Positions 15,490-54,479 of a stretch of 64,000 nt of DNA are shown here, piece by piece. Both the position numbers and the translations under genes were made by a program. Positions within the stretch are counted from its first letter, which is position 1; the number at the start of each line of letters is the position of its first letter. Origin of the DNA: a bacterium (lineage in GTDB: Bacteria; Patescibacteriota; Dojkabacteria; SC72); the NCBI GenBank assembly GCA_021463465.1, contig JAJTYH010000003.1:147549-211548 (forward strand), written 5' to 3'. The notes beneath the pieces were generated by a model, which made no database searches, was not told the origin of the DNA, and saw only the letters and a list, made by a program, of their open reading frames with translations.

Positions 15490-16108
15490 TTTCAGAAGGG
15501 TTATAAATATTATAGAAAAGTTCCATTAATTCTGGGTTTGTTAACTGATGCCCTGCAAGGCCCATACGTCCGAGTTGTTTTAGAATGTGGTCGCGTTTAG
15601 GATAGAGGAAAATCTTGCTTCGCTCAACCAGCTTGTCGATTTCAAGAGCAACTTTTTGGTCACTTCGCTCCTGTTTGAGAATACCTGCACTTGTAATTGA
15701 AGCAACCGGATTGTAGAAAATTACGATATAAAACTTCTTATCCAATACATCATTTTGTACGATGAGGTTTTGGATGAAGGTAGTGTAGATTTGAAGCTGT
15801 TTTTTAAGCCCCTCGCTCATGTTCGCCTGATTCTGGGCTTTGAGATAGTTAACGTAATTAGAGATGTCGATTCGGTTGGTTTTGATTAGAATTTGGATTG
15901 GAAAATTGAGGGAGTTAAGTAGTCCTGCAAAAGCATAGATTTTATTATCCTGCTCATATTCAGATAGCAAGTCAAAGTTCACCGCTGTAGTTTGTATCAA
16001 CAGAGCTGCACTACCAGAAGTCGTTACGACCAAATCATCAACGATGTCTTTCATTTCTAAGTGCTCTTGTGTTGATGCTGTGGCTCTCGCCCTAGCTTTT
16101 GGATCCAA
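15482..16108 (-). CDS. Hypothetical protein between the PrgI-like gene and the VirB4 gene (T4SS-associated by context)
   Basis: 208 aa, no TM helix. It overlaps both neighbours by a few nt, which suggests translational coupling within a three-gene operon. Confidence 0.35.
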   Translation of the reverse strand: MDPKARARATASTQEHLEMKDIVDDLVVTTSGSAALLIQTTAVNFDLLSEYEQDNKIYAFAGLLNSLNFPIQILIKTNRIDISNYVNYLKAQNQANMSEGLKKQLQIYTTFIQNLIVQNDVLDKKFYIVIFYNPVASITSAGILKQERSDQKVALEIDKLVERSKIFLYPKRDHILKQLGRMGLAGHQLTNPELMELFYNIYNPSENA

Positions 16109-16109
16109 G

Positions 16110-23751: not shown

Positions 23752-24127
23752 ACTGTTGTTTATAGGTATCCTTGTAACTGCGGTTATTACATCTGGACTC
23801 TTTGCTTACTATTTCGTTTATTTACCGAATAAAACTACTAGTAATGTAGGGGGGTGTAGTCCTACTAAATTCCGCCAGGAAAAGAATGGAGAAGAGTACT
23901 TTCTCTTTTGGACAACTCTTGATGAATGCACAGGATATGTCAAATATGGCAATACAGCGGAAGCCTTTCCTTATCTGGCAGTCGATCAGCAGGGAGTGGT
24001 CAAAGTCAGGGAGCATGAAGTAAAACTCTCAGGAATAACCAAAGGCAGCACGTACTATTTTGTAATCTTTTCGAACGAGAAAAGTTTTGGGAATGAAGGC
24101 AGACCTCTAATCCTTAGTTTCGAATAG
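23738..24127 (+). CDS. Small TM-anchored protein with an FN3/purple-acid-phosphatase-N-like domain
   Basis: TM anchor, then 'YFLFWTTLDECTGYVKYG...HEVKLSGITKGSTYYFVIFS'. The same W-T-[DT] / H-x-V / Y-x-F pattern occurs at the N-termini of the 1150-aa and 612-aa proteins further downstream. Confidence 0.4.
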   Translation: MKTNKLLFIGILVTAVITSGLFAYYFVYLPNKTTSNVGGCSPTKFRQEKNGEEYFLFWTTLDECTGYVKYGNTAEAFPYLAVDQQGVVKVREHEVKLSGITKGSTYYFVIFSNEKSFGNEGRPLILSFE

Positions 24128-25970
24128 TTTTATTCTTTTCTAGTTTCTCTATAAACTTCTCTTCGAAGTATCTCTGTGGATCATTTGATTTGAGACCAAT
24201 ATTTCTTACAGTCTTTCCAAGAGTTGAATTGATTAGCTTATTGCTCACATTTAATCCGCTTTGTGAGAAGTAGAAGAAGAGTCCAAGTAATATGGTGAAT
24301 ACCGCGAGTGCTACTCGTGAAATAGTACTGTCAAATAATGCTGTCTCAGGTGAAGTACAGTTTTGAGACACTGAAACAGAGACACTACTTCTTAGGCTAT
24401 CATCATCTTTTGGTGTATTTACTGGGATTGCAATAGCCTCATTTAGGTTACTGCCTGATAGAGCCGAGGAACTAACATTAGCGCTGAAACGTATTGTAAG
24501 GCTATCTCCCGAATCTATTGTCCAACCTCCATTAGTTGAAAAGGTAATTTGCTGAGTACTTCCAACAGTTTCTACATCAATAAAATCGCTATCATCGACC
24601 AATGAACCGTTAATATAAGTAGAATTGGTCTTGTAAGTAAATCCTAACGGCAGTTTATCTTCTATACGTGTAACTCCTTCATCATCTGAATCGGTATTTT
24701 GAATTGAGATTGTGTAAGTGAGTGAGTTACTACGTTCAACACAAGCGACCGAAGCGGTTTTATCTAGTGTGAAATCAGAAGTTTCTGTTTCTTCGTTTGG
24801 TTTTTCCTCTTGAGGGTTAGTTGGCTCCTCTTCTTCTGGTTCTTCTTCGTTAGGCTCCTCAGGTGTCTCTTCTACAGGATTCTTTGGCCCTTCTTGTATA
24901 GCTGGAATCTCAAATTCTCCAATACAGTTATCTGAATTAATCAAACTACCATCGACATATACTTGCGAAGAAATATTGAGGGTACCCATTTCATCATCGA
25001 TGACTGAGAACGATTTTCCGTCAATGAAATTGGAAGCAGAGTATAGGAAGGATTTGGTAAGGACTAGAGATGAACCCGACATTTGAGACTTAATGTTCTT
25101 AGTAGTTAAAGTCTCGCCAGTTTTACCCACCGTAAACTTCACAGAGAGTGTATTAGTAGGGGTTACTGATGCCATACTTAGGTTGATTTCGTTAACTTTT
25201 GGTTTCTGATTAGTATCGTTGACAACTTCAGCTCTTAATTCAGTGCAAGTTGGAGCGTTAGGCTTGTTTACTGTCAATACGCGGTTACAAGCTTCTGAGG
25301 TAATCTGTGCACCAGTCGTTGATTGACCGAAGGCTTGAATGCTCAGGGTATCAGAAGTTGAATAATCTGGGATTGTTGTAGTGACAAGATATTCTTTGTC
25401 GACTCCGGTTCCACTAGATGTAGCTTGGTCCTTTTGCATTTCTGTCTTAGCGCCGTTAACTACAAATGAGAATCCAGAATAGAAGTCCTGGTCAGGGGTT
25501 GTAATGTTTTTTGGAGTAGTGAATTTGGCTTTGATTGTAAGTTTTTGTCCTGGTTCGACCTTATTGGCATATCGCTTCTGTGCGGTGTCTTCGATAGAAA
25601 TATCGACACATCCTGGGTTGATTGCAAAATCATCAACACGGCAGGCAAGGGTGGTTTGGTTCTCCTCCTTAAGGCTTGAGGCTGTTCTTAGGTCACAGCT
25701 TGCCGAACAATTGTTGTTGCCTTGTATTGTACCTGTCTGGAATTCATAGGCCATCTTAGGATTAGCATCAGCACAGCTTTTGACTGTGTCAGTAGCTGCT
25801 ACAAAATAACAACCACAACCTTGCGATGCATTGGTATTTTGAGGTGAAATATCGTTGATTTTAAGATAGAAATATCCGGTTATCAAACTGGCTACCGCAA
25901 GTACTGCTGTAAATACCAATATAAGCGTTACTGTTTTTTTTGTACGTTTAGCTGCTGCTAAAGGATCCAT
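24114..25970 (-). CDS. Surface protein with a DUF11 ('conserved repeat') domain, an acidic linker and a C-terminal SPETAL-TM-basic tail
   Basis: N-terminal signal anchor. Acidic linker 'EETPEEPNEEEPEEEEPTNPQEEKPNEE'. The DUF11-like segment 'DKLPLGFTY' matches the D.LP.GL.FV signature. C-terminus 'SPETALFDSTISRVALAVFTILLGLFFYF' followed by Lys-rich residues. Confidence 0.5.
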   Translation of the reverse strand: MDPLAAAKRTKKTVTLILVFTAVLAVASLITGYFYLKINDISPQNTNASQGCGCYFVAATDTVKSCADANPKMAYEFQTGTIQGNNNCSASCDLRTASSLKEENQTTLACRVDDFAINPGCVDISIEDTAQKRYANKVEPGQKLTIKAKFTTPKNITTPDQDFYSGFSFVVNGAKTEMQKDQATSSGTGVDKEYLVTTTIPDYSTSDTLSIQAFGQSTTGAQITSEACNRVLTVNKPNAPTCTELRAEVVNDTNQKPKVNEINLSMASVTPTNTLSVKFTVGKTGETLTTKNIKSQMSGSSLVLTKSFLYSASNFIDGKSFSVIDDEMGTLNISSQVYVDGSLINSDNCIGEFEIPAIQEGPKNPVEETPEEPNEEEPEEEEPTNPQEEKPNEETETSDFTLDKTASVACVERSNSLTYTISIQNTDSDDEGVTRIEDKLPLGFTYKTNSTYINGSLVDDSDFIDVETVGSTQQITFSTNGGWTIDSGDSLTIRFSANVSSSALSGSNLNEAIAIPVNTPKDDDSLRSSVSVSVSQNCTSPETALFDSTISRVALAVFTILLGLFFYFSQSGLNVSNKLINSTLGKTVRNIGLKSNDPQRYFEEKFIEKLEKNKTIRN

Positions 25971-26978: not shown

Positions 26979-28415
26979 TTACTCTGTGTTAGCTTGATCT
27001 ACAACTAAGGGCTTGCCTAACAAGATGCTTACATCCTCTCCATTTAGATTAGTCTTTATATAGTCAGGTTGTGTTATATTCTCAGTTTTTAGGTAAGTCG
27101 CGAATTCGTTGGCAATTATTGAGAATTTGTTTTGGTGGGAGTAAACAACATCGCCCTTTTTGTTGGGAAAAAGCGTACCCATAAAGGTAATATCCAAGTA
27201 AGGGTACTTTTTCTTCATTCGAGTTACTTTCTTTACGGCTTCATTGTAGCCAATACCTGTATCATAAACCCTTATCTTAGCTGTGAGAGAGTAGATTTCA
27301 GGTTTGGTAAGGCACAACTGCACAAGCTCTTTGACTTGGGTGTAGTTATCAATACCCGCGAGAGGGGCAATTGCGTATGCGTTAGTGTAGGGGACGTTAG
27401 TTGTAAGTAATTGGTAGCCTCCGAATGAAGGCTCTAGTACGAAAGAATAAACCTTGCCAGGTTTTTCTTGATACTTTTTGGCCATATTGATTCCTGCTTG
27501 AATATCATTGTTGGTAACTTCTGATAACTTCACGTTGTCTTGAATTGCCTGCATTATGCTCAAAATCTTTTGAGGGTTAAGTAGGGTGTCGGTTGACACA
27601 ATCTTATCCTTAAGTGCTGAAATGACCTTCTGCTGTCTTTTGGCACGAGCGAAATCAGTACCCTCATTGTTATCTGAACTGTGTCGAGATCTAGCGTATT
27701 TAAGGGCCGTTTCTCCGTCCATTTTCTGTGGTCCCTTCTTGAATGTCACTGTCTCGTAGACAGGTTTGCGCTTGGATTCAGCTGGATATTGGTAGTCTGT
27801 GAAAGAATTTTCCACATTAACTGTAACTCCTCCCACTGCGTCAACAATTTTTTTGAAGCCCTGTAGATCAACTAAAGCGTGATATTGAATCTCGATTCCT
27901 GTAAGTGAAGTAAGCACATTTCTCAAATAGTTAAGTCCGTTACCCTTCTTAAGGCTTTCTCCGTGGGCATAAAAAGAATTTATCTTACTGTACCAGCCTT
28001 CATTTGGAATCTTAACGTACAAATCTCTTGGAACAGAAATCATTGTGATGTTGCCATTCTCATGGTTATAAGTCGCAATAATCATGGAGTCGGTGTTTTG
28101 TAAATCACTTTTTGCACTTCTGGTGTCGATTCCTACGATTAAGGCGGTTGTATATTTACCAGTACTATCTCTAGTCAGCTCAGGGTCCTTTTTGATTGGG
28201 TTTAATATGTCATCAGGTTGGAATTTAATCCCCACGTTATTTGAGAACTCGATGGCTCTGTAAGCCATAAAACCACCGCCAATGAGTAGTATCAGAAAAA
28301 TCCAGAATAACCACTTTTTCAATTTAGGTTTGGGTTTTACAGGAACTTGAACGCCATTAACAGTTGTAGTAACGGGTAAAGTTTTTTTAGCGTCCATATT
28401 CAGACTCAAAGCCAT
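26979..28415 (-). CDS. LytR-CpsA-Psr (LCP) family cell-wall glycopolymer phosphotransferase
   Basis: N-terminal TM, then an LCP core: 'ALIVGIDTRSAKSDLQNTDSMIIATYNHENGNITMISVPRDLYVKIP...SKINSFYAHGE'. Confidence 0.8.
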   Translation of the reverse strand: MALSLNMDAKKTLPVTTTVNGVQVPVKPKPKLKKWLFWIFLILLIGGGFMAYRAIEFSNNVGIKFQPDDILNPIKKDPELTRDSTGKYTTALIVGIDTRSAKSDLQNTDSMIIATYNHENGNITMISVPRDLYVKIPNEGWYSKINSFYAHGESLKKGNGLNYLRNVLTSLTGIEIQYHALVDLQGFKKIVDAVGGVTVNVENSFTDYQYPAESKRKPVYETVTFKKGPQKMDGETALKYARSRHSSDNNEGTDFARAKRQQKVISALKDKIVSTDTLLNPQKILSIMQAIQDNVKLSEVTNNDIQAGINMAKKYQEKPGKVYSFVLEPSFGGYQLLTTNVPYTNAYAIAPLAGIDNYTQVKELVQLCLTKPEIYSLTAKIRVYDTGIGYNEAVKKVTRMKKKYPYLDITFMGTLFPNKKGDVVYSHQNKFSIIANEFATYLKTENITQPDYIKTNLNGEDVSILLGKPLVVDQANTE

Positions 28416-28430
28416 TTTCTTTACGGATTA

Positions 28431-29423
28431 TTATCTTAGATGGTTTGCAATATTGGTCTCGTGTTCTGCGAGAGTTTTAGCGAAATACACTTTACCATCA
28501 TTATCATGAATATAGTAGTAGTATGGATTTTTTTTCGGGTTTTTAGCTGCCGCAATAGCAGAAAGCCCTGGATTACAAATAGGGGTAGGAGGGAGGCCTA
28601 CTCGGAAATAGGTATTGTATGGTTGATCTTGTTTCTTGTCAGCTTCAGTAATTACGTGCTTCCAATCTTTGAAGTGATAAAGGATTGTGGCGTCGATTTG
28701 GAGTAACCAACCTTCATTAAGTCTTTTCTCAATTACATCAGCAATCATAGGGCGGTCAGAATTACTCAAGCCTTCTCGCTCAAGCATACTTGCAATGATA
28801 ATCTCCTTATAAGTAGCGCCGTTGGTTTTGGTTTTGAAGTTGTCCAGCATTGCTGTGATTACATACTCTGTAGTTGCTTGTGCGGGCATCAGATATTTAT
28901 CAGGAAAAAGGTAGCCTTCTAAGTCTTTTACTCCTTCAAACCCTTGAGCTTTAATAAACTGGGTATCTTTTGTGAAAGAGAGAAACTCTTTAGAAGAAAA
29001 GACTGCTCCCATAATTCCTTCGTATTCGTTTGCAATAATTTTGGCTATCTCGTCTTTACGAAGCCCTTCTGGGATAGTTACCCAAATATCTGTAATCTCT
29101 GGATTTTCAAGTAGCGTCATCATATCTTTTGGAGAGGTATTTGCAGGAACTTTGTAAGCGCCTACTTTGAAGTTAGGCTGTTTTTCTGTACGGATATAAA
29201 GCTTGAGTGCAAGTTCTTGTTGTTGATTGATGAAATTTTCAATTCGAAGTTTCGCAAGTACATTATCAGCAGTTTCTCCTTCAGTGATTTTGAAAGTCTT
29301 TACTGACGTATCATTGGAAGAAGTCGCCGTTAAAATAGCGTTGTATTTGCTGTATAGAAAGATTCCCATACACGCAAGCACAAGCAAAAATATGAAGAAT
29401 ATTCTCATGAAAAATTTAATCAC
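28431..29423 (-). CDS. mltG: Endolytic murein transglycosylase MltG (YceG-like)
   Basis: N-terminal TM. Conserved 'GLPPTPICNPG' and 'YNTYFRVGLPPTPI' (YceG signature). Confidence 0.8.
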   Translation of the reverse strand: MIKFFMRIFFIFLLVLACMGIFLYSKYNAILTATSSNDTSVKTFKITEGETADNVLAKLRIENFINQQQELALKLYIRTEKQPNFKVGAYKVPANTSPKDMMTLLENPEITDIWVTIPEGLRKDEIAKIIANEYEGIMGAVFSSKEFLSFTKDTQFIKAQGFEGVKDLEGYLFPDKYLMPAQATTEYVITAMLDNFKTKTNGATYKEIIIASMLEREGLSNSDRPMIADVIEKRLNEGWLLQIDATILYHFKDWKHVITEADKKQDQPYNTYFRVGLPPTPICNPGLSAIAAAKNPKKNPYYYYIHDNDGKVYFAKTLAEHETNIANHLR

Positions 29424-31684: not shown

Positions 31685-33796
31685 TTAGGAAGGTTTTTGC
31701 GGTGTTTCTGGTGCAGGCACAACGTCAGGTGTATTTGTTGGTTCCGGCTCTTGTAGCGTCTCAGGTGTACTAGAGGTTGGTTCAGGTGAAGAGGAGGGGG
31801 CAGTTTCGTTAGGAGTTGGCAGGAACTCGCTAAACTTCTCCTCTTGAGCCTGGAGTTTTTCAGCTAAGGCTTCAAGTTCTTTATTAGTTGTATCTTCAAT
31901 ATCTACCTGTGCTTCTCCTGCAGTTATAGGGACTTCAGGTAGTGGATCTGCTACAGGAGGTCGTGGTTCTACGGATATTGGTTCTATTACAACTTTCTCC
32001 ACTTCTACCGGCTGCTCAACGGGGGTAATGGGTACTGGTGCCACTATGTTAAATTGAGGACCGATTGGTTTAACCGGTTCTTGCACTTCTGGCATTGACT
32101 CAGGCTTTGGAAGCTCTTCTGCCTGTGATGTTTGAGGTAGGTTGCTTTCTTGCCTGGGAGGGATTGTGGATTGATAAACAGTCTGATATGTAGCATCATC
32201 ATCCTCATCTTTTGACCCCCTCCATGCGAGATAGAGTAGCCAAGGTACTATCAAAGCAAGGAGCAGTATTGCTAAGCCGGCAGCTACTATTATTGCTAAT
32301 CGCTTAGGGATTTCGAACCCGATGATATTGTAGGTATCGTTACTGCCTGAATCTACAGGAAGGATAGTGAATATCCAAGACTTTTCAGTCTTATTACCCT
32401 TATCATCTTCAAAAGATACGCTCACTTTGTGTATCCCGTCACTAAATTCTTGTTCCGAAGTGTAAAGAACTGTATAAGTGTTGTCAGATCCCTCATTAAT
32501 TCTAGTTTTGCCACTTACATCATTGTCATCAAGTATAATTTTGATACTCTCTTTTTTGATTAAAGCTTGGTTTCCTGGTACTAAGGTTGCGCTGATAATG
32601 GCGTTTCGGTTCTTAATACTACTCTCATTACTTGGAGAAAGATTTATAATTTGAGCTTCTTTTATAACTACTCCGTCATCTGGTCCTGGAGTAGGTGTCT
32701 CACCGCCTTTTCCTGTGATTGTAACCTTGGAGGAGAAGCCCGAGCCAGTAGCTGGAGGATCAAAATTGTCTATAGCTCGAATTACAAATTGGTAGGTACC
32801 CTCCGCAAGATTATTGGTATCATAGACATAAGTACCTATCTTAGGGCTTAAATTCTTAGAAACAGCTACCCAGGTATTGGCATTTCCTGGGTTTGTGGCT
32901 ACATAAAGCTCGTATCTAACTATCTGGTTTAGGTCCGCACCTTCCCAGCTCACTGTGACACTTTCTCCCTTTTTGACGGTTAAATCGGTTGAAGGTTTGA
33001 TTACTGAGACTTTTGGAATGTCATTCTGACCTTGGTCTACATTTATAACCCAGGTTTGAGCTCTTAAGTGGGCATTGTAGCCGTCATGAATGAATATATT
33101 TGCCAGATAACTGCCTGGTTTATCAGGGATTCCCGTGAATTTGATGCTAAGTTTTCCTGATGTACCATTTTCGACTACAGTTGCTTTTAGCCAGTTAGCA
33201 TCAGGTGTAAAAGAAAAAGCAAAATTGATAGTATCTTTTTCCTCGTCAGTTGCTTCAAAAAGGTATTGGTAACTCTCTTTTACTTTAATAATATTTGAAG
33301 GTTGTGCTGAAGTTGGAATAGTTTTGAATTCAGGCGCATTGTTATTACTCACAACCATTACAGTTCTGTTATTCTCGACTACACAAGGTCGTGTACCCTT
33401 ATCAGTTGTAAGTGTACCTAAAACTCCGAAATCGCCAACTTCTTTAGGATTAAGTGTAAACATTTCGTAAATCTGATCCTTGCCAGTGTCATACTCTTTC
33501 TTTAAGACTTCTGTGCCGGTTCGATCCATGATTGAGACTTTGGTTATTGCTTCACCTGGTGTTTGAGCTGATACAGTGGCTTGGATGGTCTTATTGACCT
33601 CTATGCTTTGAGGGGTAACGTAAGGAAAGCTAATCTGACAACTTTCCACATCAAGAGTCACATTTGCTGCTTTGTCGCGTGTGTCAAAACTTCCTAGATT
33701 GATAATGGAATATATTGCTAAAGGAATACTTATAGCCAAAAAAAGAAGCGCTAGAAGGGAAAATTTTTTGGTTGCATGTTTTCTCATTCTTACCAA
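31685..33796 (-). CDS. Large surface protein (703 aa) with beta-rich Ig/FN3-like domains, one C-terminal TM and a Pro/Glu-rich cytoplasmic tail
   Basis: Signal anchor at the N-terminus. TM 'LAIIVAAGLAILLLALIVPWLLYLAW'. The tail is rich in P/E/V ('EPVKPIGPQ...PEPTSSTPETLQEPEPTNTPDVVPAPETPQKPS'). Confidence 0.5.
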   Translation of the reverse strand: MVRMRKHATKKFSLLALLFLAISIPLAIYSIINLGSFDTRDKAANVTLDVESCQISFPYVTPQSIEVNKTIQATVSAQTPGEAITKVSIMDRTGTEVLKKEYDTGKDQIYEMFTLNPKEVGDFGVLGTLTTDKGTRPCVVENNRTVMVVSNNNAPEFKTIPTSAQPSNIIKVKESYQYLFEATDEEKDTINFAFSFTPDANWLKATVVENGTSGKLSIKFTGIPDKPGSYLANIFIHDGYNAHLRAQTWVINVDQGQNDIPKVSVIKPSTDLTVKKGESVTVSWEGADLNQIVRYELYVATNPGNANTWVAVSKNLSPKIGTYVYDTNNLAEGTYQFVIRAIDNFDPPATGSGFSSKVTITGKGGETPTPGPDDGVVIKEAQIINLSPSNESSIKNRNAIISATLVPGNQALIKKESIKIILDDNDVSGKTRINEGSDNTYTVLYTSEQEFSDGIHKVSVSFEDDKGNKTEKSWIFTILPVDSGSNDTYNIIGFEIPKRLAIIVAAGLAILLLALIVPWLLYLAWRGSKDEDDDATYQTVYQSTIPPRQESNLPQTSQAEELPKPESMPEVQEPVKPIGPQFNIVAPVPITPVEQPVEVEKVVIEPISVEPRPPVADPLPEVPITAGEAQVDIEDTTNKELEALAEKLQAQEEKFSEFLPTPNETAPSSSPEPTSSTPETLQEPEPTNTPDVVPAPETPQKPS

Positions 33797-33865: not shown

Positions 33866-35185
33866 CTACTTTACGACTTCACTGAGTCGTTGATTAATTC
33901 TATCTTGAGCATCTTTTAATGCGTCAGGAATTCTTACCCCTCGCCCTACCACATCATTTATTGCAGTTCTTAAAGACTCTTCAATGAATACTTGGTCGCC
34001 CATCTTCCAAGCTGTGAATGTAGGGGCCATTTGCATGAAGGCACCTGCATACGGGTCACTTTCTAATTCGAAACTCATGCTCTTTCGAGAATATGGCTCA
34101 CCGAAGGCACGTATTTTGGCTGAATTGGAATAAAACTCTTTCATTTGGGATTGCTCAGATAGCCACTTAACTAGTTTCCATGCCTCCAATTGGTTAGGGC
34201 TGCTTCTTGTAACTGCTTCACCCCAATACATTGCGTAGTTTACAGGGTCATTACTTGGTAGTTGTGGCACAGGTGAAATTCCGAATTCTATTGTCGCGTT
34301 GGCATTTATTATATCAAAAGCTCTCCAGCTTGGACCAAACATCATTGCTAGCTTACCTGAATAGAACATCTCTAAATCCGAAGCGAGTTCATCTCCCCAC
34401 ACTTTGTGAACTTTGGTAAAACTGGTGTAAAAGTCTAGTGCTGATTCCGACCTTGTAGAGGTAATGTTTACTTCGTCATTAGTGCTGTTAATGATTGGGA
34501 CGTTGTTTTGAAGTAGGAGCAAGGAGAAAATGTCGGCTGAGTGTTTGATATTTTTGGCACTACCCAGGGCAACTCCACCCTGTGTTATTTTGCCAGCATT
34601 ATTCTTTTTGGTGAGTTTTTTTGCAGCTTCAATAAAGGTATCCCAATCAGTTGGTGGTACGTCCATACTTGCAGCTTTTAGAAGTTTCTTATTGTAAAAG
34701 ACCGCTAAACCATCTATTTCAAGAGGGATAGCGTAAATTTCGCCGTCAGTGCCAGTAAAGTCTCTTACTGCCGTTGGATAAAAATCCTGAGAGTAGTCGG
34801 ATGCGGTCATTATTGAAGCAGGAAGAGGTGAAAGAGAGGGTTGAAATTTTGATAACCAGGCATTATTTATACGAATTACATCAGGTGCAGGTGTGTCATC
34901 AACTATGTTCTGTTGTATACGTGTAAATACGGTTGATTCATATTGTGTAAATGGCTTTTGTACATACTGGATATCAATATTAGGGTGGTCTACCTCATAT
35001 CTTTCAAAAAGCGATTGCATTGCAGATTCAGGTTCCCATAATCCCCAGTATGTCAGCACAATTTTATCAGTATTTGTGGCAGATTTAGGAGCTTTATTCC
35101 GGTTAAGGATAAAAAGCACAACTCCCACGACTAAAATTAAAAACAGCGCAGCTCCTATTAGTATTAACCTAGTTCTGTCATTCAT
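33866..35185 (-). CDS. ABC transporter substrate-binding protein (family 1, sugar-type), membrane-anchored, orphan
   Basis: N-terminal TM anchor, then 'KIVLTYWGLWEPESAMQSLFERYEVDHPNIDIQYVQ' (SBP_bac_1-like). No permease or ATPase genes are adjacent. Confidence 0.65.
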   Translation of the reverse strand: MNDRTRLILIGAALFLILVVGVVLFILNRNKAPKSATNTDKIVLTYWGLWEPESAMQSLFERYEVDHPNIDIQYVQKPFTQYESTVFTRIQQNIVDDTPAPDVIRINNAWLSKFQPSLSPLPASIMTASDYSQDFYPTAVRDFTGTDGEIYAIPLEIDGLAVFYNKKLLKAASMDVPPTDWDTFIEAAKKLTKKNNAGKITQGGVALGSAKNIKHSADIFSLLLLQNNVPIINSTNDEVNITSTRSESALDFYTSFTKVHKVWGDELASDLEMFYSGKLAMMFGPSWRAFDIINANATIEFGISPVPQLPSNDPVNYAMYWGEAVTRSSPNQLEAWKLVKWLSEQSQMKEFYSNSAKIRAFGEPYSRKSMSFELESDPYAGAFMQMAPTFTAWKMGDQVFIEESLRTAINDVVGRGVRIPDALKDAQDRINQRLSEVVK

Positions 35186-35984
35186 ATCTTTCTCCTAATA
35201 CAATTAAGCGTTTGGATGGCACACCGATCGGCCAACAGGTCATTAGTGTAATAGTCTCTTTATCACCCTGTGTTTTTAGCACTGAGAAGTCTGATGATTC
35301 AACTATTTTTTTCTTTCGAACGATGTATTTTAATTCTTTTCCGTCTTTAAATACAGATATCTCGGCACCGATATCAACTTTTTCAAGTCGGGAGAAAATT
35401 GTTTCGGGTAGATCTTTGTGTCGATTAAAGAAACTAGGTACTGCGCTGTGGCCGTAAATAAAAGAATTTCCGCCATCTCCAGGCAAGGGAGTACCTTCGA
35501 AATGGGCGAGGCCAGATTTGAGGGCAAGGTTGTAAACTTTCTCATCAAAACTCTCTACGTTTGCTGAAATGTTTACTTTGTTTATTCCTATGATAGGTAC
35601 ACTTAACATCATATCCTTCTTGTAGTTTTTATCAATTACAATTTGTTTGCTCTGTTTGGTTACTGGGTCGTAATACACTTGTTGGCCTTGGGAGAGCTCT
35701 CCTACTTGTTTGGAAAGGTTTTGGAAGTAACTAAGACCAGGGTTGTAGTATGCGAAAGAGCCAAAGAGTAGCTCTTTGTAGCTATCTGGCACGGGTCTCG
35801 CTAGGTTTGTAGCTCTCATTTCATCGACTTTGCCTTGAATAAAGGATGAAGCAAGTGGTAGTAGTTGAGAAAAAAGGAGTAGAAAGCCAAAAAAAGAAAC
35901 ACTTATTGCAATTACTGCCCGAAGTATTTTGACATTTTTGGGAACTATCTGCTGTTGTTTATCTGTATTCCAAGTGTCATCCAT
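35178..35984 (-). CDS. Sortase (transpeptidase)
   Basis: N-terminal TM. Catalytic His in 'IYGHSAVPS'. The TLXTC motif appears as 'TLMTCWP'. Conserved Arg in 'KRLIVLG'. Confidence 0.75.
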   Translation of the reverse strand: MDDTWNTDKQQQIVPKNVKILRAVIAISVSFFGFLLLFSQLLPLASSFIQGKVDEMRATNLARPVPDSYKELLFGSFAYYNPGLSYFQNLSKQVGELSQGQQVYYDPVTKQSKQIVIDKNYKKDMMLSVPIIGINKVNISANVESFDEKVYNLALKSGLAHFEGTPLPGDGGNSFIYGHSAVPSFFNRHKDLPETIFSRLEKVDIGAEISVFKDGKELKYIVRKKKIVESSDFSVLKTQGDKETITLMTCWPIGVPSKRLIVLGERYE

Positions 35985-36073: not shown

Positions 36074-36751
36074 ATGACCACAAGAACTTATTTTAAAGGA
36101 CAAGAAAATCTTCCGTATTTATTTCAAGGTGAACCATTCAAATTCACAGATCAAATATCGGCAGAGTTTAACGAGTTCATGAATGAAGGATTTAGTAAGG
36201 TATACGATAACTTGGTAAAGGTTGGAGGAAAAGGTACAGAGGATGACAGTTACATTCGTGTTATTACGTTCAAACAGAAACTACTTGAAGGAAAAACCGA
36301 TTTAAGCCCTACTGGATCATTGATGCAGGAAGCATTTCTTTTTCAGGAGTATTTAAAAAATTTAGATGAAAATAAAAGGATTAGTGGTAGTTCTGAAGTT
36401 ATATTAAGGCATGTGAACGACCCGTTTTATGCAAGAAGAGAGCTTTTAAATAGCGCTCTAACTGCAGAGCTTTTATCAATACAGGGAGGGGCAAGAAAAG
36501 GAGCAAGCAAGCATTTCGGTCGCCTAAAAGTAGGTCTAAGCTTGGTTTTATACGAGTGTATTAGTGTAGTTAATTCCAATACAAATATAACTAAAGATGA
36601 CTTAGCTCGGATTGCAGTTGTAATGTCCGTAGTAAACTTCCTTCAACTTAGAGAAGAAGGCTTCGATAAGTCCAATGTCGCTTCAACTTTACAGTATAGA
36701 AATCTTGGTATTTGGATTAACATTGCTAAAGAGTGTTTAAAGAAAGAGTAA
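36074..36751 (+). CDS. Hypothetical protein
   Basis: 225-aa ORF with tandem TATAAT boxes upstream. No recognisable motif. Confidence 0.4.
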   Translation: MTTRTYFKGQENLPYLFQGEPFKFTDQISAEFNEFMNEGFSKVYDNLVKVGGKGTEDDSYIRVITFKQKLLEGKTDLSPTGSLMQEAFLFQEYLKNLDENKRISGSSEVILRHVNDPFYARRELLNSALTAELLSIQGGARKGASKHFGRLKVGLSLVLYECISVVNSNTNITKDDLARIAVVMSVVNFLQLREEGFDKSNVASTLQYRNLGIWINIAKECLKKE

Positions 36752-36768
36752 TATAGCCTTATCAATAT

Positions 36769-37557
36769 ATGCCACCGATTACGAATAAGAGTGAAATACA
36801 AGGTATTTATAGAGGTGTAATAGATGTCAAAGGAAATACTCCTGCAATAGCAAGATTTGCTGATATTGATATGGGTACAATCAATCAACTTGAAGCAGAC
36901 TACGAACCATTTTTAGGTGACGATTTGGACGAGTTCTCCAGTGCTGCGCGTAGGCTAGAGGAATTATCCAATAACCAGCTGCATCAAATATATGGTACAG
37001 AGTTGTTGAATTATACTGCTTTTCTTGATTTCTTGGAGCTCGTTAAAGGATATAGTCGTAACAATGAGGAGGAGAATAGACTTTGCTCAGTAGCCTATCA
37101 GCGGGGGTTGGAGCTTATAAATAATCTATTCGGATTTGTCGCTATTAACGCCATAAACACAGTCGGATATTATCGCAATGTTGCATACTCTGATAGTATA
37201 GAGCTTGCCCATAGGTATCAGGATTGCCTTAAAGAGGAAATTATACTTTACGACCAAATATTAAAAGTTTTGCTTGCAAGAGTAGAAAAAGAAGAAAAAC
37301 TTACAGTCACTGAGCTAACTTTAATTCTCAGGGCGCTTGGTAACTTTTATCACTACAAAGGTAAGGTTTTTGATATCTTGTTCACAAAAGCTACAAGTAT
37401 GAATGCCTCAACGATTGATGAGAGGATTGCAGATGTGATTGGAAGTGAACATTGGTCTAGTCTGTACACAATTTCGGCAAAACTTCGGACTGCTGCAGAT
37501 AAGTTGGAGGGGAGATATGGTCTCCCTGAATCAGTAACAATCTCAGTTGAACGCTAA
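36769..37557 (+). CDS. Hypothetical protein
   Basis: 262-aa ORF, probably helical. No recognisable motif. Confidence 0.4.
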   Translation: MPPITNKSEIQGIYRGVIDVKGNTPAIARFADIDMGTINQLEADYEPFLGDDLDEFSSAARRLEELSNNQLHQIYGTELLNYTAFLDFLELVKGYSRNNEEENRLCSVAYQRGLELINNLFGFVAINAINTVGYYRNVAYSDSIELAHRYQDCLKEEIILYDQILKVLLARVEKEEKLTVTELTLILRALGNFYHYKGKVFDILFTKATSMNASTIDERIADVIGSEHWSSLYTISAKLRTAADKLEGRYGLPESVTISVER

Positions 37558-48648: not shown

Positions 48649-51600
48649 ATGTTTAAAGTACAAGTTGGATGGGAAAACGTCAGAATTGTAGGGAGGTACT
48701 TTTTAGCCTTGCTATTACTCATTTCAATTGGTCTTATTGGTTACAAGGCGTATTATATGCTAACCAATGTCCCAAAAGAAGTTAGAGTTACGAATTTGAC
48801 AGGTACTTCTGCTACTGTTTCCTGGTATACAGACAAACCCGATAAGGGGATGGTACTTGTCAAAGAGAAAGACTCTTTTATCCCTTTGCTAAAGAAGTTC
48901 GGAGCTGTAATCGGTTATGATGACAGAGATTTGGCTTTCGCTAGAGCTTCCTTGGCGGATGAGATTACTAGGAAAGCTGCAGAGGGTTTGGATTCTAATG
49001 ATGATGCAACACTTCCCGATGGTTTCCTTGAATCGGTAAAGGTAACCAAAAAGGGTAAATACTATGTACATCATGTAACCGTGTCAGGACTAAAAGAAGA
49101 TACGAACTATTCGTTCAGAGTTGGTAATGGCCTTATCTTTTGGAATTTAAATCAGAAGAGACAGGAAACGCAAGAGTTTGAGGTTAGAGCTGTTGATAAG
49201 TTCTCTTTTAAAACGTTGCTAGAGCTAGAAGAGGTACCCACCCCGAATCCTGCTTATGGGAAATTGTACTCCTTGGCGAGGGATAAAGATGGCTACTTGA
49301 TGTCAAATCCTTCCACAGATGCAATACTGTTTTCGCTTGCAATTAAAAAAAACTCAGACGAGACGTCACTACCACTCTCAAGCGTTACAAATAAAGATGG
49401 TGGATGGTTAATTGAGAAGACTGCTTTCAGAGATAGTAGTGGCAACGTTTTAGAGGGTATGAAAGACGGCGAGGATACGTTACGCATAGTGGGGCAGTTT
49501 GAGAACCTCTCTCCAAGTGAAGCGAAGGATTTAACATGGGGAGTAAATGACTCTCCTGCAGATGCAATTTATGGAAATAGCGATGAAGAAGCTAAAGTTA
49601 GAGGTAGCTTATTGGATAAAGTTAAATTTAGCTTAAGTGATTCGTTTAAAAGCCGTACTAATAACCTAACCCTGAACGCTTTTAAGGTAAATGCAGGAGT
49701 TGATAAGCCAAGTGATTGTGATCCCAATAAAGAAGTGTGGAATTCAACGAAAAAAAGGTGTGACCCTAAATCGGCTGTGACTGGGGGCACTGATTCTAAT
49801 GGTTGTGATTTGGATTCTGAGTATTGGAACGAAGAGAAAGAAACATGTTTAGCTAAACCTGTAACTCCACCAATAGTAGTTCCACCCGTTGGTGGCATTG
49901 ATAAGCCAAGTGATTGTGATCCCAAAGAAGAAGTATGGAATAAAAATAAAAAAGTGTGCGACCCTATTGAAGATGATTCAGGGTCTACCCCACCAGCAGT
50001 TACGCCCCCGACAGTGAACCCTCAAAATGCGGATGGACCAGAAGATTGCGCTGCTATTGCTGGATCAGAATGGAATGCTCAGCAACAAGCTTGTATTAAA
50101 ACAGACAAAAAGGATAAGTATGATAAATGTACTGGCAGATTCGCCAGGACTTGTGATGAGGAACCTCTTGGGGGTAATTCAACAAACTGTTATTGTTCAA
50201 TTGGTGGAGGAGAATACCTCCCTCTTCGAGGTGTTGATTGTAGACCAGCCGCTTGTGCAAATAAAAGGAATAATGATGTGGTATGCTCTGATGGTAAATG
50301 TGAATCAAGGGTTAAAATTGACGCAAAAGGAAACGAAGTCCTGTGTGGTAGTGATTATACAACCCCTGGTTGTGGTTTTCCTGGAGATGGGAAGTGTCCT
50401 GAAGCTACGCCATATTACAATAGCGCGACAAATGCTTGCCAAACTAGCGCTCCTTCTTCTCAGCCTGAGATAACGGTAGGGGGCGAGCCTTCGGATTTGA
50501 TTCTTTGTGTATACAAAATTAATGGTAGTAGTGTAAAAGCTAGGAAAACTAAAGCTGAATGTGATGCTTTGAATGGGAGTAATGGTAGTGGTACTGTTCG
50601 ATGTGGTTTCGGTCAAAGACCTGATGGTAAAGGTGGATGTGAATGTCACCCTGCCTTCGTAGGAAATGCAAATAGTCCTGGAGGTTGTCAGATGCCTGGT
50701 AGAACTGATCAAGAGCTTAAAGATAAGAGATGTGTAGATATGGAAGGTAGGGCGCTATCGTGCGGTAGTGTAAGATATTTTGATGAACAAACTGGCCGTT
50801 ACGAAACTGTGAATTGTGGGAAGAATGGAAGTGTATCTTGTAATAGTTCGAATGAAGAGTGTATTCAAACGTTTAGGGAAAGTGCTCAGGCAGTTGCAGG
50901 TGTGTGTTCTCCCAAAGGTATTGCTGTAGGTATTTTATCGAATTACGATGGGAATAATAAAGGTCTGGTGGAGTTTGGAAATGACTGTTATCTTAAAATT
51001 GATTCAAAAGGTCAAGTCATTGATAGAACAGTTCTCACCACTCATTATAATATTGAATATCAACGGAAGATTGAACAATCAAAAGATTGGGTACAAGTAC
51101 CAATGAAATACTGTACTTCAGGACCAGTAAAGGAAGACTATCCTGGTGATATCGGAAGTAGCCTCAATAATGATGGGAAAAACAACTTTACATTACTAGG
51201 TGAGGTTAGTGCTGCTGACGAAATTGCAGTAACAAATAATACAAATTACATGATTGTTTTCCCTGAAAGTGGTAAATACAACGTTAATATAGGTGGAAGT
51301 AAATTTGAAAACATAACTGTAAATGCTGACAATGATTACTTCTTCTTTGATGACCGTAATGGAGTGAAAGGGTATCAAAGTCCTTCTGATTTGAACAATC
51401 CAAAACCAAATGAAGACTTAATGCTCTCTGTGCTAGGTGCTAAGGTTACCTTAAGTACAACTACAAAAAATCAGTCTCTGAAACTAAGTAAAGGAATGAA
51501 TATGATTTCATTTAACTACCTACCGTCTTCAAGTGAGAAAGAGTCTTTGAAGGCTTCTGAGTTTTTAGATATATCTAATAGCTCAGGACTTAAAGTTAGC

Positions 51601-52101
51601 AAGATAACATATTTTGAAGGTGGAAAATGGGTTGGCGGTATGTCAGCTATTTCTGGGGATAAAAAAGTTAAGGCTGGAAACGATTTTGCTCTAGTCCCCG
51701 GCAAAGGCTACTTGATTATTTCTTTGAAGGATACAACCGTCCAAGTTCCTGGATTTAGTATTAAAAACTCTGTACCAGTAGCACTTTCTTCTGGTTGGAA
51801 TTTAATAGGTATAAACGGATATCAAAAAACCTTCACCGCTAACTCTTTAATTGATTCAGTAAATGGTCTGTCGGGGCTAAAAGCTGATAACGTAACTTGG
51901 TGGCCTACATCTAAAGGTCGTTACGAATCTTTCCAGAAATCTGAAGGGGTTGAATATGGTTTCGATTTCCCAATTCTTAAAAATATGGGATACTTTGTTA
52001 GGTTGAGTGACTTTGAGCCGAAGGATTCATCTGCCAAGTCTGTTCTCTGGAATCCAGGAAGTTCGTCGCACGGCAAAGCTGGTTCGACCAAGGCCAATTA
52101 A
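48649..52101 (+). CDS. Giant (1150 aa) Cys-rich surface protein: N-terminal TM anchor, FN3-like domain, repeated CDP-containing modules, C-terminal beta-rich region
   Basis: TM 'YFLALLLLISIGLIGY'. FN3-like 'VRVTNLTGTSATVSWYTDKP...YYVHHVTVSGLKEDTNYSFRVG'. Two copies of 'IDKPSDCDPxxEVWNxxKKxCDP'. About 50 Cys residues in total. Confidence 0.55.
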   Translation: MFKVQVGWENVRIVGRYFLALLLLISIGLIGYKAYYMLTNVPKEVRVTNLTGTSATVSWYTDKPDKGMVLVKEKDSFIPLLKKFGAVIGYDDRDLAFARASLADEITRKAAEGLDSNDDATLPDGFLESVKVTKKGKYYVHHVTVSGLKEDTNYSFRVGNGLIFWNLNQKRQETQEFEVRAVDKFSFKTLLELEEVPTPNPAYGKLYSLARDKDGYLMSNPSTDAILFSLAIKKNSDETSLPLSSVTNKDGGWLIEKTAFRDSSGNVLEGMKDGEDTLRIVGQFENLSPSEAKDLTWGVNDSPADAIYGNSDEEAKVRGSLLDKVKFSLSDSFKSRTNNLTLNAFKVNAGVDKPSDCDPNKEVWNSTKKRCDPKSAVTGGTDSNGCDLDSEYWNEEKETCLAKPVTPPIVVPPVGGIDKPSDCDPKEEVWNKNKKVCDPIEDDSGSTPPAVTPPTVNPQNADGPEDCAAIAGSEWNAQQQACIKTDKKDKYDKCTGRFARTCDEEPLGGNSTNCYCSIGGGEYLPLRGVDCRPAACANKRNNDVVCSDGKCESRVKIDAKGNEVLCGSDYTTPGCGFPGDGKCPEATPYYNSATNACQTSAPSSQPEITVGGEPSDLILCVYKINGSSVKARKTKAECDALNGSNGSGTVRCGFGQRPDGKGGCECHPAFVGNANSPGGCQMPGRTDQELKDKRCVDMEGRALSCGSVRYFDEQTGRYETVNCGKNGSVSCNSSNEECIQTFRESAQAVAGVCSPKGIAVGILSNYDGNNKGLVEFGNDCYLKIDSKGQVIDRTVLTTHYNIEYQRKIEQSKDWVQVPMKYCTSGPVKEDYPGDIGSSLNNDGKNNFTLLGEVSAADEIAVTNNTNYMIVFPESGKYNVNIGGSKFENITVNADNDYFFFDDRNGVKGYQSPSDLNNPKPNEDLMLSVLGAKVTLSTTTKNQSLKLSKGMNMISFNYLPSSSEKESLKASEFLDISNSSGLKVSKITYFEGGKWVGGMSAISGDKKVKAGNDFALVPGKGYLIISLKDTTVQVPGFSIKNSVPVALSSGWNLIGINGYQKTFTANSLIDSVNGLSGLKADNVTWWPTSKGRYESFQKSEGVEYGFDFPILKNMGYFVRLSDFEPKDSSAKSVLWNPGSSSHGKAGSTKAN
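49691..49958 (+). repeat. Intragenic direct repeat, two copies of about 70 nt spaced 198 nt apart. The 27-nt core TTGATAAGCCAAGTGATTGTGATCCCA is identical at 49700-49726 and 49898-49924.
   Basis: Read directly from the sequence. The repeat encodes the duplicated 'DKPSDCDP' module. Confidence 0.6.
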
Positions 52102-52117
52102 TTTGAGGTAAAAAAAT

Positions 52118-52420
52118 ATGAGTGAAATACCAACATGGTACTGGATGACAATAATCGGTTTCTTAAGCGTGCTTTTGGGCATGATTTTGTACTACGTAGC
52201 AATGCTGGTTAAAGAGACAACTGCTACAATGTCTGAAGTGAGAGCAACTCTAGTTGATTCCAGAAAACTTGTTCAAAATGCCAATCAAATCGTGGAGGAT
52301 GTTCAAGAAACTGTGAGTAATGTTAAACACACGATTAATCAAGTGAATGAAGCTGTCCTCGAACCTGTCAAACAGGTGGGTGATACAGTCCGCTCACTTC
52401 TTGGTATGTTCAAAGGTTGA
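52118..52420 (+). CDS. Small membrane protein, DUF948-like (TM followed by a coiled-coil)
   Basis: 'WYWMTIIGFLSVLLGMILYYVAMLV', then a heptad-like polar region. This architecture resembles the DUF948/YtxG family. Confidence 0.35.
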   Translation: MSEIPTWYWMTIIGFLSVLLGMILYYVAMLVKETTATMSEVRATLVDSRKLVQNANQIVEDVQETVSNVKHTINQVNEAVLEPVKQVGDTVRSLLGMFKG

Positions 52421-52424
52421 AGCT

Positions 52425-52562
52425 CTATTTAAGCTGATTTCCGAAGTAGATTAGTAGTATGGATATTGCTGTTGCTGCGATAAGGATTGCAAGTGGTTCT
52501 AGGTAGTATCTCATCCGAACTGGAACATTAAACACTAATTCTTTTTCAGCTGGTTTTTCCAT
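52425..52562 (-). CDS. Possible unannotated 45-aa single-TM protein (MEKPAEKELVFNVPVRMRYYLEPLAILIAATAISILLIYFGNQLK)
   Basis: An ORF found by hand in the 196-nt gap. 'AGGAT' lies 8 nt upstream of the ATG. It is below the size cutoff of the ORF track. Confidence 0.2.
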   Translation of the reverse strand: MEKPAEKELVFNVPVRMRYYLEPLAILIAATAISILLIYFGNQLK

Positions 52563-52616
52563 CTTAATATCCTACAAATGTTTGTATAACTAATCAAGAT
52601 TAGTTATATTATTACC

Positions 52617-54455
52617 ATGTATGTGACTCCCCGACAAAGAAGAAGATACTTCTGGACCAGTATAATTTTGATACTTGGGTTACCTATAACTGCATTTGCA
52701 ACTGTAATGGCAATAAGGTACTTCACAGGAGCCTCAGGGAGCGATACACCACAAAACGTAGTAATTTCCAATCTTACTTCAAATTCAGTTTCCATCTCAT
52801 GGAGTACAGACTCAAAAGCTACAGGGGCGATAACAACGAATGCTGGAAAAGGAGATAGCACCCCCTTTGTTGATATTAGAGGCACGGATCGCCGCAAAAC
52901 TCATCATGTTGATATTGTAGACTTAGATCCATCAAAAGATTATAACTTCGTTATTCTTTCAAATAATCAAAGATACTCAGATGAAGAGGGTAAAACCTTT
53001 AAATTTCGCACTTCTCCCGTGACATCTCAAACCCCTGTTCCTTCACCTGTATATGGATTGATAGAAGGGGATAACAAGGAGGATGTATTAGTTTATGTAA
53101 CCCTGAATGGAAGGTCTAGTGTATATCCTGCTTCATCTGCAGCTACTGGCTCTGGAAAGTGGATTATTGATTTATCAGCGCTCCGTGACCCAAGCTCAAA
53201 TGAACTTATCAAGGTTGATGACAATACTGAAATCACTGTTACGGCAAAGGGAACCGATACTTTAGGGGGAACACTTTCAGGTACATATGGTGAGCTTGTT
53301 GATGACGAGGGGCAAATGTTTACCCCTCTACAATTAAGTGATGTGCCTCTTGATTCGCTTTTTGCTGCAATTCCAAGGTCGGCTCAGATTGCGTTGGTAG
53401 CCCAGTCTTCTAACCCTCCGCCTAAAGATAATCCTCCTGCCAACGAAGAACCTGAAGAAGAGGAGCCCGAGGAGGAAGAGCAACTTCCAGGGGGAGAGAT
53501 AGCATGGGGTGTTATCCCAGGTACCAATACTTCAAGTGGTGGTAGCAGTGCAGTTACTGGTGCTGATTCGGTACAAATAACTAATATAACTGATTCTGGA
53601 TTTACCGTTGTATGGTTAAGTGGAACTGCTTCTGAGGGTTCCGTAAATTACGGGACAACAGTGTCTGATCTTGGAGAGAATGCTCTTGATGAAAGAGATA
53701 GTGCTGTTAGTAAAGGTGCATACACAGCGCATAGTGTGAAGCTGTTAAGACTTTCACCTGAAACTAAATATTTCTTTGAGATAAAGGATGGGAACTCAAT
53801 TATTAATGATGGAGGAAAAGCCTTCACAGCAACAACTTTTAAAACCTTGGAAACCCCCCCTGAATTCAAAACGGTTGCGGGCAAGTTTACGGGTCCATCT
53901 GATCCTTCAGATGCGGTGGTTGTTGTCGGGGTAAGCGATGAAGATGATTCAGGAAGTAGTGGAAGCTCTAGTTTGAGTTCAACAATTCCTGATGATGGCG
54001 GTAGTTGGGTCATCACCTTGGGAGATTTGCGAGACAGCTCAGGCGCAGAGTACTTCACTTTCAGTGATGATGATACTGTTGAAGCTAATGTTCTTTCAAT
54101 TTCTAGAGGAGAAACAGAAAGCGCGAAAGTCAAGGATGTTATAGATGCTGGAATTAATTTGACTGCTTCCGCAGGAGCAAAGCGTCGGATAGTTAAAGTG
54201 TCAGCTTTGGCTAGTTACGGTATTACTATTGGCAACTTAGCTTCTGTAAACTTGGGTGCAGGTGGAGGTGGGGGAAGTAGTGAGTTAAATGTTACTGGAT
54301 CAACTACCCCCGAAACAGCCTTATCTACGCCTTTAATAGTTACACTTGTAATTGGAATGATTACCTTTTTAGTTGGAGTTTTTACATATATCAAGTCACA
54401 AGCTCGGTATAGGGTAAAAGAGAGTAAAAGTCATATGGTTTCTAGTGTTATTTAG
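52617..54455 (+). CDS. Surface protein (612 aa): N-terminal TM, FN3/PAP-N-like domain, acidic linker, C-terminal TPETAL-TM-basic tail
   Basis: 'VVISNLTSNSVSISWSTDSKATG...HHVDIVDLDPSKDYNFVI'. Linker 'PANEEPEEEEPEEEEQLPG'. C-terminus 'TTPETALSTPLIVTLVIGMITFLVGVFTYIKSQARYRVKESK'. Confidence 0.5.
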   Translation: MYVTPRQRRRYFWTSIILILGLPITAFATVMAIRYFTGASGSDTPQNVVISNLTSNSVSISWSTDSKATGAITTNAGKGDSTPFVDIRGTDRRKTHHVDIVDLDPSKDYNFVILSNNQRYSDEEGKTFKFRTSPVTSQTPVPSPVYGLIEGDNKEDVLVYVTLNGRSSVYPASSAATGSGKWIIDLSALRDPSSNELIKVDDNTEITVTAKGTDTLGGTLSGTYGELVDDEGQMFTPLQLSDVPLDSLFAAIPRSAQIALVAQSSNPPPKDNPPANEEPEEEEPEEEEQLPGGEIAWGVIPGTNTSSGGSSAVTGADSVQITNITDSGFTVVWLSGTASEGSVNYGTTVSDLGENALDERDSAVSKGAYTAHSVKLLRLSPETKYFFEIKDGNSIINDGGKAFTATTFKTLETPPEFKTVAGKFTGPSDPSDAVVVVGVSDEDDSGSSGSSSLSSTIPDDGGSWVITLGDLRDSSGAEYFTFSDDDTVEANVLSISRGETESAKVKDVIDAGINLTASAGAKRRIVKVSALASYGITIGNLASVNLGAGGGGGSSELNVTGSTTPETALSTPLIVTLVIGMITFLVGVFTYIKSQARYRVKESKSHMVSSVI

Positions 54456-54479
54456 TAGTATTTTGTTGTACAATCCAAA

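Follow-up and report, generated by a model that had tools for sequence, protein, structure and literature searches.

Does a sortase encoded in a genome of Candidatus Dojkabacteria act on surface proteins that carry a sorting signal lacking the familiar leucine? The question is raised by a 64-kb stretch of contig JAJTYH010000003.1 (hereafter the window, by which we mean the whole stretch of DNA analysed), in which we find a sortase gene and the genes of two unrelated surface proteins, a DUF11 protein and an FN3 protein, whose C-terminal regions contain SPETAL and TPETAL, respectively. The window has a G+C content of 39%, and the named homologues of its proteins belong to Candidatus Dojkabacteria (candidate division WS6, within the Patescibacteria or Candidate Phyla Radiation, CPR). 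We consider that these genes probably belong to a housekeeping-type sortase system of this lineage, in which the enzyme reads xPxT[G/A/S] on both surface proteins.

The sortase and its nearest class

By family, catalytic residues and fold, the product of the gene in question is a real sortase, for which transpeptidase activity is predicted. Its features are as follows.

35178..35984, minus strand: sortase gene, 268 amino acids (aa), from the open reading frame (ORF) call with PF04203 and TIGR01076
Parts of the protein: N-terminal membrane helix, conserved linker of ~60 aa, and catalytic domain with H179, C250 and R259

The 268-aa product scored 75.4 bits against the Pfam Sortase family PF04203 (cutoff 26.6) and 69.1 bits against NCBIfam TIGR01076 (cutoff 39.35), and its sequence contains FIYGHS, TLMTC and KRLIV. 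H179, C250 (within TLMTC) and R259 were invariant in an alignment of 32 homologues, so the sortase with a His/Cys/Arg triad and TLMTC that the initial annotation had placed here is upheld, with the gene on the minus strand. The single hydrophobic segment detected by a hydropathy scan is N-terminal, and was modelled by AlphaFold2 (AF2) as helix 16-60. The AF2 model was of moderate quality, with a mean predicted local distance difference test score (pLDDT) of 70, and gave 135 PDB matches in Foldseek at E<=0.001, of which the best 50 of 135 were all sortases. The top Foldseek matches were class C sortases (E about 4e-12), and the closest solved structure by sequence was 8t28, a class C pilus sortase (E 5e-13). 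We detected 442 homologues, the best 120 of the 442 being at least 50% identical over their full length, including the linker of ~60 aa between the transmembrane segment (TM) and the barrel, and found the sortase to be conserved across Dojkabacteria at an identity of at least 50%.

Within this linker (35745..35801, minus strand; residues ~62-80) P64, P66, A78, Y80 and P82 are invariant in the 32 homologues, and the consensus reads PxPDSYK...FAYY[D/N]PGxSYFQNL. The FAYY[D/N]PGxSYFQNL part might be a lid-like element, in a region (residues 58-84) that was modelled with pLDDT <50. We additionally identified two assemblies that each contributed two sortase loci (L014 and L017; L058 and L065), which could represent two sortase copies, strain mixtures or binning duplicates.

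The sortase passed none of the NCBIfam class models against which it was scored (C, D, SrtD LPxTATN, E, F and GN).

Class C, NF033745: 79.6 bits, cutoff 160 (the best class score)
Class D, NF033746 and NF058671: 53.0 bits, cutoff 165 (D), and 57.2 bits, cutoff 140 (SrtD LPxTATN)
Class E: 32.9 bits, cutoff 160
Class F: 25.9 bits, cutoff 166
Class GN: 33.9 bits, cutoff 158

By these scores the class closest to the Dojkabacteria sortase is C, though the class C cutoff was not reached. The initial annotation had likened the signals to the class D motif LPNTA, an analogy that does not extend to the enzyme, with 53 and 57 bits on class D models that require 165 and 140.

Class C sortases feature a lid with DP[FWY] over the active site, a C-terminal TM and a pilin gene cluster. 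The hydropathy scan revealed no C-terminal membrane segment in the Dojkabacteria sortase, the chain of which stops 9 residues past the catalytic Arg; N-terminal of the barrel lies the conserved stretch YY[D/N]PGxSYF, in the poorly modelled residues 58-84. These results bear on the possibility of a class C-like pilus polymerisation, in which the FN3 and/or DUF11 proteins would be joined head-to-tail via a Thr-Lys isopeptide bond, rather than anchored or before being anchored. The class C model gives the best class score, all of the top PDB matches by sequence and fold are pilus-specific class C sortases, the YY[D/N]PGxSYF stretch could be a lid-like element, and the substrates are made of Ig-like domains, all of which would fit polymerisation. 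However, the class C cutoff is missed by half, the C-terminal TM is lacking, and the putative lid lies where pLDDT is below 50, and we consider polymerisation improbable, also in view of the gene neighbourhood described below.

Signals at the C-termini of the two surface proteins

The DUF11 and FN3 proteins were the only 2 of the 52 window proteins with both a hydrophobic segment at the N-terminus and a TM near the C-terminus. Both display a tripartite layout, consisting, after an N-terminal export segment, of motif, hydrophobic segment and Lys/Arg-rich tail.

24114..25970, minus strand: DUF11 protein, 618 aa (orthologues P0024-P0042)
24339..24353, minus strand: pentapeptide S540-P-E-T-A544, by DNA read
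24267..24314, minus strand: hydrophobic membrane segment, residues 553-568, VALAVFTILLGLFFYF, by hydropathy scan and alignment
24117..24266, minus strand: 50-aa cytoplasmic tail with conserved NDPQRYFEEK, by C-terminal alignment
52617..54455, plus strand: FN3 protein, 612 aa (orthologues P0001-P0020)
54306..54320, plus strand: pentapeptide T564-P-E-T-A568, by DNA read
54330..54392, plus strand: hydrophobic membrane segment, residues 572-592, by hydropathy scan and orthologues
54393..54452, plus strand: 20-aa basic tail KSQARYRVKESKSHMVSSVI, by orthologue alignment
Stretches around the motif in the two putative substrates, written out as peptides: CTSPETALFDS, NCTSPETALFDS, GSTTPETALSTP

The DUF11 protein, for which the Pfam label falls below cutoff (19.2 vs 24.6 bits) and the NCBIfam model TIGR01451 is passed (31.1 vs 24), has the C-terminal region ...QNC-TSPETA-LFDSTISR, followed by the hydrophobic segment and a Lys/Arg-rich tail of 50 aa. 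PETAL is encoded at 24350..24336 and the Ser before it at 24353..24351 (minus strand). The C-terminal region of the FN3 protein reads ...GST-TPETA-LSTP, followed by the hydrophobic segment and the tail KSQARYRVKESKSHMVSSVI, with TPETAL at 54306..54323 (plus strand). Both C-termini are therefore as the initial annotation had described them (SPETAL, TM and Lys-rich tail; TPETAL, TM and tail), the coordinates given there proving exact when the DNA was read. Cleavage is predicted between T543 and A544 of the DUF11 protein, by analogy, and between T567 and A568 of the FN3 protein.

P.T[GA] occurred just 7 times in the 19,738 residues of the window proteins, and the chance of its lying <=12 residues upstream of both C-terminal TMs was about 2e-5. 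In these two unrelated families, P-x-T-[G/A] stands 4-9 residues ahead of the C-terminal TM. The PETAL codons differ synonymously (CCT GAG ACA GCA TTA in the DUF11 gene vs CCC GAA ACA GCC TTA in the FN3 gene), indicating that the two signals are independent and do not derive from a copied segment; gene conversion between them was ruled out on this ground.

To follow the DUF11 signal beyond the window, we searched a profile of the last 89 residues against 1.84 billion representatives. The motif xPxT[GASN] was found directly before the TM in 95 of the 96 distinct DUF11-family sequences, the one exception being a 60-aa fragment that begins downstream of the motif. In the full-length alignment, which extends down to 28% identity, P541 and T543 are among just 56 invariant columns. 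The most distant members have an acidic linker between the last domain and the motif, so that even where this linker is inserted the motif stays adjacent to the TM. An extended extracellular motif, PxTG[IL]FD, was recognised in the family (P0025-P0042, P0163-P0239). The tail has a median length of 47 aa over the 95 sequences and contains the element P-x-[K/R]-Y-F-E-E-K, in which the C-terminal alignment shows no variation at P71, F75 and E76. We considered whether this C-terminus is a promiscuous sorting domain borne by many passengers, and ruled this out, as the 81 cluster representatives form one broad family: ten sampled representatives were mostly of DUF11 type by Pfam, and the named ones were Dojkabacteria.

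For the FN3 protein, a C-terminal TM is present in 14 orthologues, and all 14 show [T/I]-P-[K/N/E/S]-T-[A/G/S]. The other 6 of the 20 orthologues stop at NYGV[YLI], with the Gly-rich linker, motif, TM and tail all missing together. The signal has thus been lost as one unit, as expected of a detachable sorting tag. At the extreme C-terminus of the family (54435..54452, plus strand) we noted a conserved M-[I/V/T]-S-S-V-[I/N/F]. The residues found at the variable positions of the two motifs were as follows.

Position 1, DUF11 family (n=95): S 21, A 20, T 20, Q 12, V 9, N 6, I 6, L 1
Position 3, DUF11 and FN3 families together: E/D/Q/K/S/N/G/V (in the DUF11 family E/D/Q/K and others)
Position 5, DUF11 family (n=95): G 83, A 6, S 5, N 1
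Position 5, FN3 family (n=14): A 9, G 4, S 1, with Leu at position 1 in 0 of 14

Read from these alignments, the motif is x-P-x-T-[G>A>S], and PETAL is this genome's spelling of it; the nearest relatives have PKTA[VI] (FN3) and PETG[IL] (DUF11). The initial annotation had proposed PETA itself as the sorting signal, and of this proposal the tripartite layout and the Pro/Thr core, which is present in the orthologues of both proteins, have stood, while the unit is x-P-x-T-[G/A/S], in which the Glu, like the Leu that follows the pentapeptide, varies. Similarly, Ala as the fifth residue holds for the majority of the FN3 family (9/14) and is not the norm in the DUF11 family (6/95). Beyond the core the contexts differ, with TG[IL]FD in the DUF11 family and TA[IV]SxP in the FN3 family. 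The overall signature is of LPXTG type: Pro and Thr are fixed, position 3 is free, Thr is followed by a small residue, the distance to the TM is constant, and in some orthologues the signal has been lost as a unit. A likeness to known signals also shows in the scores, as the IPKTG and IPNTG signals of orthologues reached 11.7 and 14.0 bits on LPXTG_anchor TIGR01167, just short of its cutoff of 15.9; a further score of orthologue signals on the TIGR01167 / PF00746 models was 12.9 (cutoff 20). The more distinctive departure from LPXTG, not emphasised in the initial annotation, lies at position 1, where Leu is almost never found.

We infer the pairing of enzyme and signal, the site of cleavage and the attachment to the wall along the following lines. 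The two surface proteins would be exported via their N-terminal hydrophobic segments and kept in the membrane through the hydrophobic segment and basic tail at their C-termini, where the membrane-anchored sortase (Cys250, His179, Arg259) would recognise the juxtamembrane x-P-x-T-[G/A/S], here [S/T]PETA. Cys250 would attack the carbonyl of Thr, so that the chain would be cut after this residue, and the acyl-enzyme would be resolved by the amine of a peptidoglycan precursor, to which the protein would be transferred. Such an enzyme would accept any of Gly, Ala and Ser following the scissile Thr, and would not need Leu at position 1.

Several observations weigh against this account. Neither window signal matches the LPXTG models TIGR01167 and PF00746, and Leu at position 1 is essentially absent (1/95 in the DUF11 family, 0/14 in the FN3 family). 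LPXTG signals typically have short tails, and those of the two substrates are long, at 50 aa (DUF11) and 20 aa (FN3); the DUF11 tail element is moreover as conserved as the motif, which is unexpected for a discarded peptide. The N-terminal segments of the substrates may be either cleaved signal peptides or anchors. Just two substrate families were found in a six-frame and ORF motif screen of 1.25 Mb, comprising the window and the flanks of 80 sortase loci, which recovered, besides the two window proteins, no more than a single FN3 orthologue (L060, IPKTG). With permuted motifs as controls there were 1-4 raw hits, for the most part spurious antisense ORFs, and with the true motif 5, so that the six-frame count is weak by itself, and the evidence for a sorting signal comes, at the level of sequence, from conservation in orthologues. 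The sortase is apparently near-universal in the lineage, and its co-occurrence with the substrates is therefore not discriminating.

The long tails in particular could be explained if both substrates were ordinary bitopic membrane proteins that keep their TM and tail, with PxT[G/A] serving as a juxtamembrane hinge, a glycosylation site or a protein contact, and with the sortase acting on other proteins. The conservation of the tails (in the DUF11 family, a median of 47 aa and invariant P, F and E; in the FN3 family, M-x-SSV-x) suggests a function not readily expected of a peptide that is discarded, and neither the missing LPXTG model match nor the replacement of Leu at position 1 would need explaining. 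However, two unrelated families would then carry one P-x-T-small core, its third position free, at matching sites with respect to the TM. This is the signature of a sortase signal, for which another explanation is hard to find. The extended context differs between the families, so that only the sortase-like core is common to both. The whole module is also dispensable in 6 FN3 orthologues, and DUF11-type repeats are typical of wall-anchored proteins. We accordingly judge it unlikely that the substrates are bitopic proteins of this kind.

The P-E of the window motifs, which is also found in PEP-CTERM signals, could point to a different enzyme altogether, of the exosortase, archaeosortase, rhombosortase or prepilin-peptidase type, and the FN3 signal gave a TadE-like match of 20.8 bits (cutoff 22.9). 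However, orthologues have K, N, Q, D or S in place of the Glu and a second Pro is absent, no exosortase-like or rhombosortase-like protein was found among the polytopic proteins of the window, and the TadE-like match is below cutoff and carried by the hydrophobic stretch. Processing by any such enzyme is thus hardly to be expected. The PEP-CTERM reading of PE was ruled out because of the variable Glu, and the TadE-like match was taken as an artefact of the hydrophobic stretch.

Returning to a sortase that reads xPxT[G/A/S], a more far-reaching version, which we regard as conceivable and put forward with considerable doubt, is that Dojkabacteria, and perhaps other CPR lineages too, have their own sortase clade outside classes A-F. 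This clade would be structurally nearest to the pilus sortases, would act as a single housekeeping enzyme on a minimal P-x-T-[G/A/S] signal that is independent of Leu, and would have as its main substrate a DUF11 protein with a conserved cytoplasmic module of ~47 aa (P-x-K-Y-F-E-E-K), itself endowed with a function. If so, the DUF11 tail might for example be set free as a C-peptide by which the cell is informed of anchoring, or might serve as a docking site that determines where on the cell the protein is anchored.

Gene neighbourhood of the sortase and its putative substrates

We investigated the neighbourhood of the sortase gene in 80 Dojkabacteria sortase loci, with flanks of up to 10 kb. 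On one side we identified a string in the order sortase, solute-binding protein, Big-domain surface protein, alaS, ruvX, yceG, LytR-CpsA-Psr (LCP) ligase and holA, each member being present in 51-73 of the 80 loci (solute-binding protein 73, Big-domain protein 64, alaS 60, ruvX 57, yceG 56, LCP 54, holA 51). On the other side were dnaJ (66), nusA (56) and infB (48). In the window and in loci L085 and L086, from two further genomes, the string lies on one strand and runs straight into the gene of the DUF11 substrate. The sortase gene thus sits in a string of housekeeping and cell-wall genes that ends in the DUF11 substrate, and not in a pilus island.

Two further points count against class C-like polymerisation: a housekeeping string and not pilin genes lies beside the sortase in 51-73 of the 80 loci, and neither substrate contains a pilin motif of YPK[N] type. 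A pilus island was ruled out from the synteny and the absent motif.

The wall-related genes of the window comprise a MurJ fragment and the two genes below, and fit a peptidoglycan-containing envelope, to which a housekeeping sortase could attach its substrates.

26979..28415, minus strand: LytR-CpsA-Psr ligase (Pfam PF03816, 144.5 bits)
28431..29423, minus strand: YceG/MltG (Pfam PF02618, 236.2 bits)

The two genes next to the sortase, which adjoin it in 64-73 of the 80 loci, also encode membrane proteins. The ABC-type solute-binding protein (33866..35185, minus strand) has an N-terminal TM anchor, and its gene overlaps the sortase stop by 8 nt. The Big-domain protein (31685..33796, minus strand; 703 aa) has a TM at residue 494, followed by a Pro/Glu/Thr-rich cytoplasmic tail of ~180 aa. 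We found no xPxTG signal ahead of the TM in either protein. Two proteins, 225 and 262 aa long, are encoded between the sortase and dnaJ (36074..37557, plus strand); they had no family match in Pfam or NCBIfam, and were also found beside an identical sortase on contigs L082-L084.

The FN3 substrate lies within a cluster of seven genes (48649..62560, plus strand), which occurs in the same order in Dojkabacteria contig L081. The cluster starts with a 1150-aa PAP_N/FN3 protein, the 612-aa FN3 substrate and a 455-aa Cys-rich secreted protein, followed by proteins of 476 aa (~10 TMs), 993 aa (4 TMs) and 349 aa, and a 395-aa SH3_3 protein. Four of the seven genes had no Pfam or NCBIfam match, and the cluster may represent a surface or secretion apparatus of an unfamiliar type.

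Finally, we identified type IV secretion genes of monoderm type (13090..17075, minus strand), encoding a VirB4-like ATPase of the CD1110 family (382.7 bits, cutoff 325), a TrsD/TraD-like protein and a PrgI-family protein. Their order in the window is repeated in L085 and L086.

Comparison with known sorting systems

CPR/Patescibacteria are episymbionts, and their surface proteins probably mediate attachment to the host. Current LPXTG models miss the proteins described here, suggesting that too few wall-anchored adhesins are probably annotated in this lineage; such adhesins would be found by a rule specific to it, namely xPxT[GAS] followed by a TM and a basic tail. Protein ligation could draw some benefit from a sortase that disregards position 1 and takes Gly, Ala or Ser as the residue following Thr. 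The conservation of the cytoplasmic tail is, in addition, a hint that in these organisms the 'disposable' part of a sorting signal may serve some purpose. In the literature on sortases of CPR/Patescibacteria we found general mentions of their presence and no paper describing their sorting signals. Sortase genes have been reported for over half of the CPR genomes (PMC6744442).

By sequence and by fold, the Dojkabacteria sortase is matched best by class C sortases (Actinomyces oris SrtC2, 8t28; S. agalactiae SrtC1, 3rbi), with a TM-score of about 0.6 normalised to the target. The TLxTC motif, the catalytic His and Arg and an N-terminal extension before the barrel are common to both. In contrast to class C systems, the Dojkabacteria sortase has no C-terminal TM and lies outside a pilin cluster, and its putative substrates have no pilin motif.

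With class D (Bacillus, LPNTA) the likeness is the Ala after the predicted scissile Thr in both window signals, LPNTA being cited as a sorting motif of B. anthracis (PMC4155245). However, the class D models failed, Ala is just one of G/A/S in the lineage, and position 1 is not Leu. The canonical LPXTG anchor resembles the Dojkabacteria signals in its tripartite layout, in the invariant Pro and Thr, and in Gly being the commonest residue at position 5 in the DUF11 family, and the IPKTG and IPNTG signals of orthologues come close to the cutoff of its model. It differs in that the Dojkabacteria signals do without Leu at position 1, are not matched by the model in the case of the two window proteins, and have tails of 20-50 aa, one of them with P.KYFEEK.

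A similar arrangement is known from the SrtB system of Clostridioides difficile, in which SPKTG, PPKTG, SPSTG and SPQTG, and not LPETG, are cleaved between T and G (PMC4155245). There too a single housekeeping sortase is matched with a (S/P)PXTG motif that has Ser and not Leu at position 1, Pro and Thr at positions 2 and 4, and no fixed residue at position 3, and the substrates are likewise adhesin-like surface proteins with a TM and a basic tail at their C-termini. For SrtB, the cut between T and G has been demonstrated; for the Dojkabacteria sortase, a cut after Thr is predicted. SrtB belongs to class B, whereas the Dojkabacteria sortase passes none of the class models tested and comes nearest to class C. 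Compared with the SrtB system, position 1 is far more permissive in Dojkabacteria (S/T/A/Q/V/N/I), position 5 may also be Ala or Ser, and the substrate tails are much longer. Thus, the system described here is a lineage-specific variant of a known one: its sortase clade falls into no class, position 1 of the signal is permissive, position 5 may be G, A or S, and the tails are long and conserved. It leaves the understanding of sortases unchanged and extends a known system to a poorly studied lineage.

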